Source of the DNA: a virus
UHGV virus genome: UHGV-0105381
Reading direction: 5' to 3' (one strand)
DNA length: 24,558 nucleotides
Below, piece after piece: positions 3,385-5,269 of the stretch (position 1 is the first letter of the stretch; the number at the start of each line of letters is the position of its first letter). The translations under genes were made by a program, and so were the position numbers. The notes under the pieces were generated by a model, which saw nothing but the letters and a program-made list of their open reading frames with translations, was not told where the DNA came from and ran no database searches.

Positions 3385-4047
3385 ATGGAATTATACGATA
3401 AAGACGCGAGTCTATCCACAAAATCACAAGCCGTAATCAATCACATCAATGGTCGCACATTAGCTTATGTGAAATCAGTTACGCACAAACGTAATGAATT
3501 AAAGGCGGAGAATAAACGACAATCATCAAAGGCTAACCACTGCATACCACCAGCCTGGACAAAGAGGAAATGGCGTACAATGAGGCGAGCTTTGTTTACT
3601 CTGGATGTCGAATCAACTAGTGGTATCCCCTACTCCTTTACCTTCAGACCCGTTAAGGGAACAACGCCAGAGAAATTCAACAAAGCGTTAAAGGCACTTA
3701 CCAGATGGTTGACTTCGAAAGGCAATCAGTGGGTTTACGTCATGGAGTGGGCTCGACACCAGTCAGAGCCGCATGTACACGCAATAATCATGGTGAACGA
3801 AAGAAGCATTAATGGGCAAGCTGGCAAAATTATCAGCAAATGGGTAACACTGGCAAACAATGCAATCCCATCAAATGTTCCTCCCCAGTGGGATCTAGAT
3901 TTGAAAGGTCAGCAATATTCAGAGCCTACAAAGTGTATAGGTAAACACATTGATTACATGGCAAAGCCCGAAATGAAGTGGTCAACAAAAACTGGCCACC
4001 GAGTTAGAGTTTTTCCAGTATCGATTTTCCGATTCGTTTGGGGGTAA
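3385..4047 (+). pseudogene. HUH-superfamily rolling-circle replication initiator (Rep), 3' end disrupted by IS insertion; native coding sequence ends near 3973
   Basis: Translation carries HUH motif PHVHAIIMV, a YxxK motif (DYMAKPE) and an upstream FTLD motif. From nt 3974 the ORF reads through the IS terminal inverted repeat (MKWSTKTG...), so the last ~24 codons are IS-derived. Confidence 0.55.
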
Positions 4048-4821
4048 TCCACCGTTATATTCGTGCGGTCTTAGTGCGCTGTAATATCCAACGATATAGT
4101 CCGTTATGGCGTGAGCTGCCTCGCTGAAGCTTACGTAACCCACCACCGGCATCCATTCGTTCTTCAGACTCCTGAAGAAGCGTTCCATTGGGCTGTTATC
4201 CCAGCAGTTTCCGCGCCGGCTCATACTCTGCCTGATCTGGTATCGCCACAATAACTGCCGGAACTGCCTGCTCGTATAATGACTGCCCTGATCGCTGTGG
4301 AACATCACCCCGCCGGGCTTACCACGGGTTTCCCACGCCATTTCCAGCGCTTTCATGGTGAGCCTGCTGTCCGGCGAGAACGACATGGCCCAGCCCACTG
4401 GTTTTCTTGCGAACAGGTCGAGAACAACGGCGAGGTACGCCCAGCGCTTACCCGTCCAGATATAGGTCACATCACCGCACCACACCTGATTTGGCTCGGT
4501 CACGGCGAACTGCCGTTCAAGATAGTTAGGGATAGCAACATGTTCATGACCACCACGTTTATACCGGTGAGTCGGCTGCTGACAGCTGACCAGCCCCAGC
4601 TCTTTCATGAGCCTGCCAGCAAGCCAGCGTCCCATCTGGTAGCCTCTTCGGGTTGCCATTGTGGCGATGCTTCTTGCTCCGGCCGAACCGTGGCTGATGC
4701 CATATAGCTCAAGTACCTGACTGCGTAATACAGTCCGTCTGCCGTCTGGTTTTTCAGGCCGGTTTTTCCAGTATCTGTAGCTGCTGCGATGAACCCCGAA
4801 CACATGGCAGAGTGTGACCAC
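3982..4821 (-). CDS. IS911-like OrfB (DDE transposase catalytic domain; made as an OrfAB fusion by -1 frameshift)
   Basis: 279-aa ORF with DDE-type motifs ([37 protein letters not shown]). Confidence 0.85.
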
Positions 4822-4847
4822 AGGATAATGCGCTCTGAGTTTCCCGA

Positions 4848-5150
4848 TTATCGAGAACTGTTCAGGGAGTCTGACATCAAGAGCGCGGTAGCCTTTTTTA
4901 ATATTTCATTCTCCATTTCAATGCGTTGTAGCTTTTTCCTCAGCTCACGTATTTCGATTTGTTCTGGTGTTATCGGAGAGGCTTTTGGTATTTTGCCCTG
5001 ACGCTCATCACGCAGTTGTTTGACCCATCTTGTCATTGTGGAAAGGCCGACATCCATAGCTTTGGCGGCATCTGCCACCGTGTAGTTCTGGTCAACAACC
5101 AGTTGAGCGGATTCGCGTTTAAACTCTGCGCTGAAATTTCTTTTTTTCAT
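4848..5150 (-). CDS. IS911-like OrfA (HTH transposase regulator); start at [10 protein letters not shown]
   Basis: 100-aa protein [53 protein letters not shown]... matches recalled IS911 OrfA; leucine-zipper-like C-terminus; the ORF-track N-terminal extension is probably not translated. Confidence 0.85.
4893..4899 (-). promoter_or_regulatory. A AAA AAG programmed -1 ribosomal frameshift site joining OrfA to OrfB
   Basis: CTTTTTT on the plus strand equals AAAAAAG on the coding strand, about 45 nt before the OrfA stop, with the OrfB frame open across it; the mechanism is established for IS911/IS3-family elements. Confidence 0.7.
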
Positions 5151-5269
5151 TGGAGCACCTGTGTTGTTCTGAGGTGAGCATATCACCTCTGTTCAGGTGG
5201 CCAAATTCAGTGTGCCACTTCAGCCACTTCATGAACTAGACGGCAGTTGAGTCGCTTGGGTGGTGATTA

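Follow-up and report, generated by a model that had tools for sequence, protein, structure and literature searches.

IS911 at the boundary between an argW island and a P22/Sf6-like virion module in the virus genome UHGV-0105381

The locus and its features

The virus genome UHGV-0105381 (24,558 nt; 'the window' denotes this whole stretch) opens with the integrase, regulatory and Rep genes of an island, passes through a complete copy of the insertion sequence (IS) IS911, and continues from there into the virion genes of a P22/Sf6-like phage (Table 1). An earlier reading, made from the sequence alone, had assigned int to Rep and terS to tailspike to opposite ends of a single prophage, from which the early and lysis regions had been deleted at the IS. 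Comparison with complete Escherichia coli genomes shows instead that the sequences on the two sides of IS911 belong to unrelated mobile elements, one resident at tRNA-Arg (argW) and the other between torS and torT; the flanks of this IS911 are probably hybrid, the two junctions deriving from two separate IS911 events rather than from a deletion within one element.

Table 1. Features of the window, and the IS911 boundaries in related torS/torT prophages (last four lines)
Feature	Position	Strand	Basis or remark
Tyrosine integrase, 428 aa, of argW island	50-1336	plus	Pfam Arm-DNA-bind_3, Phage_int_M, Phage_integrase
Island backbone genes	1329-3316	plus	Pfam; order same in GMF054, 99-3165 and 2022H047
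246-aa open reading frame (ORF)		plus	first of the backbone genes
AlpA-like regulator	2226-2417	plus	Pfam
63-aa ORF		plus	between AlpA-like and HTH_17/MerR-like genes
HTH_17/MerR-like protein	2739-2933	plus	Pfam
128-aa ORF		plus	last backbone gene before Rep
Rep gene 5' part, codons 1-196 of 350, putative rolling-circle type	3385-3973	plus	Pfam PF23343 REP_ORF2-G2P
Complete IS911, 1249 bp	3974-5222	minus	100% identity to annotated IS911 copies, inverted repeats, Pfam domains
IS911 right inverted repeat (IRR), 27 nt	3974-4000		repeat analysis
OrfAB coding region	3982-5150	minus	coordinates transferred from RefSeq join
orfA	4848-5150	minus	read from sequence
A6G slippery motif AAAAAAG, frameshift	4893-4899	minus	read from sequence
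IS911 left inverted repeat (IRL), 27 nt	5196-5222		repeat analysis
9-bp tandem copy of IRL tip, GCCACTTCA	5223-5231	none	repeat analysis; absent from seven uninterrupted phages
Phage DNA upstream of terS	5232-5527	minus	alignment to relatives
77-aa ORF	5270-5503	minus	upstream of terS
P22/Sf6-like virion module, terS to 881-aa tailspike	5528-23358	plus	Pfam on window ORFs and contig genes
GtrB-like family-2 glycosyltransferase, 371-aa ORF	23405-24558	minus	Pfam, PHROGs
(GGCT)n tract, running off window end	24531-24558		(AGCC)n on coding strand; repeat analysis
IS911 abutting lysozyme 3' part (L021)	1,344 bp left of window's phage breakpoint
IS911 abutting 77-aa ORF (window)
IS911 abutting truncated gp7 (GMF054, L013)	window-equivalent 15386
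IS911 abutting truncated gp20 (L010)	window-equivalent 16646

IS911 and its two junctions

IS911 is an IS3-family element of the copy-out/paste-in type that expresses OrfA and, through a -1 frameshift, OrfAB. The sequence-only reading had described an IS911-like element with both terminal inverted repeats, and it is indeed a complete IS911: over its full 1249 bp it is identical to elements that carry the annotation "IS3-like element IS911 family transposase" in several complete E. coli genomes; of the 5,426 such genomes, 4,899 contain IS911 matches. The terminal inverted repeats (TGAAGTGG...CCACTTCA) are 74% complementary over 27 nt and have TG...CA ends; the ORFs carry the HTH_Tnp_1 (orfA/HTH) and rve (DDE) domains, and identical copies are annotated in RefSeq as a two-piece join with a programmed frameshift. 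Thus, in length, ends, orfA/orfB organization with the A6G frameshift, and near-identity to the reference, it is a regular member of its family. It differs from a typical IS911 in two respects, namely, the lack of the 3-4 bp target duplication of a simple insertion, the flanks being AAA on the left and GCC on the right, and the presence of an additional 9-bp copy of the IRL tip outside the element. The absent duplication bears on the history of this copy, not on its family membership.

Both junctions can be placed to the nucleotide. On the left, the uninterrupted Rep gene of E. coli GMF054 is identical to the window through position 3973 and then continues with CTAAGTTAAATGAC; the IS end thus cuts Rep after codon 196 of 350, and the truncated frame runs on into IS911 up to 4047. 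On the right, alignment to seven uninterrupted phages shows that phage sequence resumes at 5231/5232, the empty site being ...TTTGGATGA/TGAACTAG. The intervening GCCACTTCA is neither phage nor canonical IS sequence, and duplicates the last 9 bp of IS911. The GCC recorded as the right flank in the sequence-only reading is therefore the start of this tip copy; with the copy set aside the right flank becomes TGA, which still mismatches the AAA on the left, and no matching 3-4 bp repeat is found with either right boundary. Moreover, the two empty sites are unrelated (...CCCGAAA/CTAAGTT in rep, ...GGATGA/TGAACTAG in the phage). The same reading had the left end interrupting Rep, and the right end about 300 bp upstream of terS; both statements hold, the latter distance being 305 bp. 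In GMF054 the BLAST match to the IS ran on for a further 14 bp, but this extension proved spurious.

The left flank is part of an island at argW

In GMF054, a sequence 100% identical to window positions 1-3973 lies directly downstream of yfdC and tRNA-Arg(CCT); the 428-aa integrase gene likewise directly follows these two genes in the source contigs, where the window is preceded on its left by fadI, fadL, mlaA and yfdC. In GMF054, the final 23 bp of the tRNA gene, TTCGATTCCTGCAGGGGACACCA, are repeated 8.1 kb downstream (L002, 13863-13885 and 21975-21997), and it is because of this repeat that the intervening 8.1 kb can be recognized as a discrete island: an integrase beside a tRNA gene, with the 3' end of the tRNA repeated at the far border, is the arrangement of a tRNA-integrated island. 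The window covers only its left 3.9 kb, attL being located just outside (in L005). Among complete E. coli genomes, 214 have a chromosomal match to the whole of positions 1-3973, and 550 have a match to part of it.

GMF054 has an intact 350-aa Rep gene. The truncated Rep ORF of the window scores 29.9 bits against PF23343 (gathering cut-off, 27.8), and this family is also precomputed on full-length homologs; Rep is thus probably of the rolling-circle type, and its gene is disrupted in the window. Downstream of Rep, the three islands inspected (GMF054, 99-3165 and 2022H047) contain variable cargo and then a serine recombinase gene; the cargo includes an HNH endonuclease (PF14279 type) in GMF054 and 2022H047, and other ORFs in 99-3165. 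None of the three contains phage structural genes. PADLOC and PHROGs searches on the island ORFs and cargo were uninformative, the former giving no hits. The int, AlpA and Rep genes (positions 1-3973) are therefore those of an independent island at argW, not prophage genes.

Elsewhere, Rep fragments are fused to foreign genes, representing further deletion joints at the argW hot spot with no IS at the joint. In P0007 (L032, 10001-10768), the N-terminus of a Rad52-family protein is fused to the C-terminus of Rep within a tandem argW array, in which an IntS-type prophage remnant is followed by an island remnant; in P0008, the N-terminus of an integrase is fused to a segment of Rep.

The right flank comes from a prophage of torS/torT

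To the right of the 9-bp scar, the 77-aa ORF is followed by a virion module with the order terS, terL, portal, scaffold, coat, gp4, gp10, gp26, gp14, gp7, gp20 and gp16, and then by two small ORFs, mnt, the 881-aa tailspike gene and the GtrB-like glycosyltransferase gene. The module has ~95-96% nucleotide identity to CUS-3, Sf6, Sf101 and vB_EcoP-720R6, and window positions 14000-24558 are 99.98-99.99% identical to prophages lying between torS and torT. In intact form, these have a 357-aa HK022-type integrase (Arm-DNA-bind_1) and Exc/xis adjoining torS, together with early, replication, nin, Q, holin, lysozyme and Rz genes; ORFs of 82 and 50 aa, Rz, lysozyme, holin and Q precede the region of the 77-aa ORF, and the gene set from integrase to lysis is contiguous with the virion module (L016-L020, L042 and L004). 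The window retains the terS-to-tailspike module in P22 order, without the contiguous int/xis, immunity, replication, antitermination and lysis functions of a P22-like prophage; indeed, as the sequence-only reading had pointed out, its ORFs and their Pfam matches include no repressor, replication, antitermination or lysis gene between int and terS. The terS-to-tailspike genes belong to a separate P22/Sf6-like prophage whose home is torS/torT.

P22-like prophages of an argW type also exist, some of them in tandem with island remnants (L025, L040 and L032). The right end of a torS/torT-type prophage (L022, 9153-10040) shares 888 bp, at 99.4% identity, with prophages of this argW type (L025, 9153-10040), among them the 3'-terminal 83 bp of an IntS-type integrase gene; because of this shared segment, the torT-type phage would appear to be mosaic, having formerly possessed an integration module of the argW type.

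In relatives of the torS/torT prophage, an identical IS911, with its IRL toward the virion genes, heads progressively longer deletions, in the order given at the foot of Table 1. The complete genome of 19KM2326N has a simple insertion of IS911 into the lysozyme gene, in the same orientation and with both lysozyme halves present. In L019, IS911 is inverted at the same lysozyme nucleotide and ea22 lies on its other side, whereas L042 has early-left genes joined directly to a truncated gp20 with no IS. The right junction of the window is one member of this IS911-anchored deletion series, which originated at torS/torT.

The glycosyltransferase end is kept in every variant of the eroded prophage that was seen (L021, L013, L010, L019, L042 and L049). 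Additionally, the lysis-to-terS interval of P22-like prophages has been struck repeatedly by IS3-family elements: in PK6 (L001, 12001-13245), ISEc52 lies upstream of terS between copies of a TCA duplication, and 19KM2326N (L049, 12910-14078 and 17383-19774) has, besides the lysozyme insertion, a second IS911, split by IS30, beside terL. The PK6 insertion was considered as a possible case of shared ancestry with that in the window and was rejected, as it involves a different element (ISEc52, 93% identity), different flanks and its own TCA duplication.

Geometry of the joint in the closest relative

GMF054 appears, from its near-identity, to be the same clone as the source of the window, or very close to it: there is one mismatch to the source contig in 10,589 bp of left flank, and one to the virion module of the window in 9,173 bp. 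Its torS/torT remnant reads torS, truncated int, IS911, truncated gp7 through to the glycosyltransferase gene, and torT, and at least three IS911 copies in this genome, including one that lies in ygfT and has a GTG duplication, are identical to that of the window. The argW island is at 1.526 Mb and the torS/torT prophage at 2.937 Mb, both reverse-complement to the window; they are thus 1.41 Mb apart on the chromosome and in direct orientation, which we take to be their arrangement in the K-12 gene order as well.

In the reading direction of the window, the torS/torT locus precedes the argW island. Given the K-12/GMF054 gene order, a joint of the 5' part of rep to IS911 to terS has the polarity of a tandem duplication, or of an excised circle, of the 1.41-Mb arc. 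It is not the product of a simple deletion, because this would read from the lysis genes through the IS into the 3' part of rep; nor is it the product of an inversion, because this would place one of the partners in reverse. We found no single viable event that would yield the joint with only one IS911 copy, if torT follows the glycosyltransferase gene.

Origin of the joint

If the flanks come from two different IS911 events, as we consider probable, the missing target duplication is accounted for. The left junction (AAA/IRR) would reflect an IS911 end inserted in the Rep gene of the 8.1-kb argW island, and the right junction (IRL plus 9-bp tip copy/phage) would derive from an IS911 resident in the lysis-to-terS interval of the torS/torT prophage. 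The 9-bp scar probably formed when a second IS911 landed 6 bp inside the tip of the resident element with a 3-bp duplication, GCC, the resulting tandem pair then collapsing to leave the tip copy behind; IS911 reportedly has a preference for inserting beside its own ends, a finding attributed to Loot (2002) and Rousseau (2008), both of which are cited in PMC2909936. The two halves would then have been united through the 1249 bp of IS911 that they share. The union may well have been made by the assembler, across a multi-copy IS911; an exchange in vivo between IS911 copies, of the duplication or translocation type and involving argW and torS/torT sites 1.41 Mb apart in a natural gut E. coli, seems improbable.

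The contigs themselves bear on this question. The ORF formed by fusion of Rep codons 1-196 to the IS was found only in six ENA metagenome contigs. Four of these stop within the IS, and the stop in L006, exactly 127 bp into the IS in a k127 assembly, is a repeat signature. The remaining two cross IS911, both into the 77-aa ORF and terS: a SPAdes contig (NODE_168; 44.7 kb, ~5x coverage), the last 24,558 bases of which are apparently the window, and a MEGAHIT contig (k113; 331 kb) that ENA lists under another analysis accession; throughout their overlap the two sequences agree exactly. None of the six extends into the 3' part of rep. Neither junction is present in the 5,426 complete E. coli genomes, and exact-pattern scans of JGI metagenomes (for both junctions) and of GTDB genomes (for the right junction only) gave no match. 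The duplication or circle polarity, the behavior of the IS as a repeat in four of six same-clone contigs, and the absence of the junctions from the complete genomes all argue against a physical joint. As to what lies beyond the glycosyltransferase gene, its listed places are torT-type or argW-type, and the 24 longest contigs with an identical tailspike or gp16 gene are all torT-type except for one that is argW-type, which suggests that the 331-kb contig continues into torT; when the ends of this contig were predicted on the GMF054 map, no informative repeat was found at either predicted end.

Several observations weigh against our account. Two assemblers thread IS911 to the same terS flank, and no contig leads through it into the 3' part of rep; an exact repeat of 1.25 kb ought to stop a pure de Bruijn assembler, and the crossing would thus imply a single IS911 copy, and hence a genuine physical joint, in the sample. 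Furthermore, the expected parental junctions (IS911-AAA to the 3' part of rep, and left flank to IS911 at torS/torT) were not seen among the 5,426 complete E. coli genomes, and the continuation of the 331-kb contig into torT is an indirect deduction from the fact that this contig was never listed separately in the tailspike, glycosyltransferase or gp16 look-ups.

These observations lend some weight to a genuine local joint, which we nonetheless consider rather unlikely. Here, a P22-like genome would have come to lie just downstream of the argW island, through integration at a secondary site or through IS911-mediated fusion of an excised phage circle into rep, and IS911-adjacent deletions would have followed on both sides of a single remaining IS. 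The deletion on the left would have taken out a stretch that began with the 3' part of rep and included the phage early and lysis region, and that on the right a further 1.3 kb. This comes near to the mechanism advanced in the sequence-only reading, but with two elements. It would explain why two assemblies cross the IS identically and none reaches the 3' part of rep, and a MEGAHIT contig that crosses the IS does imply that its flanks were unique in the sample. Moreover, two-sided deletions with a single IS and no duplication occur in GMF054 (truncated int, IS911, truncated gp7) and L019 (ea22, IS911, Rz), and P22-like prophages are known at argW, including those in tandem with island remnants. 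Nevertheless, the virion module is 99.98% identical to copies resident at torS/torT, the near-identical remnant of GMF054 included; argW-type prophages integrate in the orientation opposite to that of the window; no right flank other than torT or argW was found among the 24 longest contigs; and four of the six same-clone contigs treat IS911 as a repeat. Also considered was an inversion within a tandem argW array, brought about locally by two IS911 copies in opposite orientation. It predicts phage early genes to the left of int and was ruled out, since yfdC, mlaA and fadL are found there and the 371-aa ORF at the right end encodes a glycosyltransferase, not an integrase.

The single decayed prophage of the sequence-only reading, with its own int and Rep on the left, terS on the right and the IS marking an internal deletion of the early and lysis genes, does resemble the gene order of the window. 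It is refuted by the att repeats and the comparative loci, and we regard it as highly improbable: int, Rep and the genes between them belong to an island that ends in an attR of its own, 8.1 kb from attL, and that has no phage genes in GMF054, 99-3165 and 2022H047; the prophage family has a different integrase, with Exc, beside torS; and in no relative, with or without an IS, is Rep adjacent to terS. The proposed mechanism, an IS-mediated adjacent deletion or recombination between two IS copies, survives in part, as an IS-mediated rearrangement is involved and IS911 has demonstrably caused deletions that reach the lysis and virion genes in this family of prophages; the placing of the deletion within one prophage does not. 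Nor does the state of the element as 'locked-in' and non-inducible follow from the window, as the early region of the prophage may lie elsewhere in the genome. A simple IS911 insertion, the 3-4 bp duplication of which was missed through mis-mapped ends or has since mutated, is scarcely credible. The only point in its favor is the prior that most IS911 copies have a 3-bp duplication (GTG in ygfT of GMF054; TCA for ISEc52 in PK6), and it is already refuted, both empty sites being known and the flanks coming from unrelated sequences.

Relationship to known systems

Nothing here is of a new kind: the virion module is a standard P22-like one, the island is an ordinary tRNA-integrated one, and hybrid joints made by IS elements are already known. 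For IS copies without a target duplication, the usual explanation is recombination between IS copies or an adjacent deletion; more rarely, such copies have been reported from laboratory evolution at the center of duplications (Ngan et al. 2024, mBio, PMC11708052). The window resembles the cases described there in having an IS with hybrid flanks at a rearrangement joint, and its relatives show nested one-sided deletions from a resident IS. It differs from them in that the flanks are 1.41 Mb apart and in direct orientation in the closest relative, that the joint has duplication polarity, and that, quite possibly, assembly rather than recombination produced it. Should the joint prove to exist in the cell, it would constitute a naturally occurring IS-centered rearrangement on the megabase scale, analogous to the duplications of laboratory evolution (PMC11708052).

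The phage portion is like CUS-3, Sf6 and Sf101, Lederbergvirus-type prophages of E. coli and Shigella, in its order from terS to tailspike; the parts that match, which make up between one-third and about half of the window, have ~95% nucleotide identity. It is also like prophages of this type in having an O-antigen- or capsule-modifying gene after the tailspike. Unlike P22-like prophages, the copy in the window has kept nothing from upstream of the 77-aa ORF, and its closest copies are at torS/torT, not at argW, which we take to be the integration site of CUS-3 and Sf6. The island portion may be compared with tRNA-Arg (argW) islands that have P4-type integrases, such as that at the KpLE1/CPS-53 position in K-12. 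It shares with islands of that type the attachment site beside yfdC and an integrase gene transcribed away from the tRNA, but its own P4-type integrase has 428 aa as against the 385 aa of IntS, and it carries AlpA, a putative rolling-circle Rep (PF23343), variable cargo and a serine recombinase, with no phage structural genes.

The practical lesson is one of caution: an order running from int to Rep, through an IS, to terS and on to the tailspike here represents two unrelated elements abutted at the IS, not one decayed prophage, and programs that call prophages or satellites on short-read metagenome contigs would mis-annotate such joints. The locus also shows cleanly, in natural strains, how a series of deletions anchored on IS911 erodes one P22-like prophage.

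A repeat tract in the glycosyltransferase gene

The most useful by-product of the analysis, unrelated to the IS911 joint, is the (GGCT)n tract in the 5' part of the glycosyltransferase gene, which accounts for the contig ending where the window does. A literature search found no description of a phase-variable (GGCT)n tract in such a glycosyltransferase gene. In 23 related prophage loci (L007-L044), n is as low as 4 and as high as 70. The gene is one continuous ORF, of 438, 442 or 446 aa, only where n is 9, 12 or 15, respectively, and the repeats then encode an N-terminal (SQPA)n linker (...DFTA(SQPA)nSQPFVS...); with all other values, the gene is split into a short ORF and a 371-aa ORF, as in the window. 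To judge by repeat number and reading frame, this looks like the pattern of slipped-strand phase variation in the gene for a prophage O-antigen-modifying enzyme.

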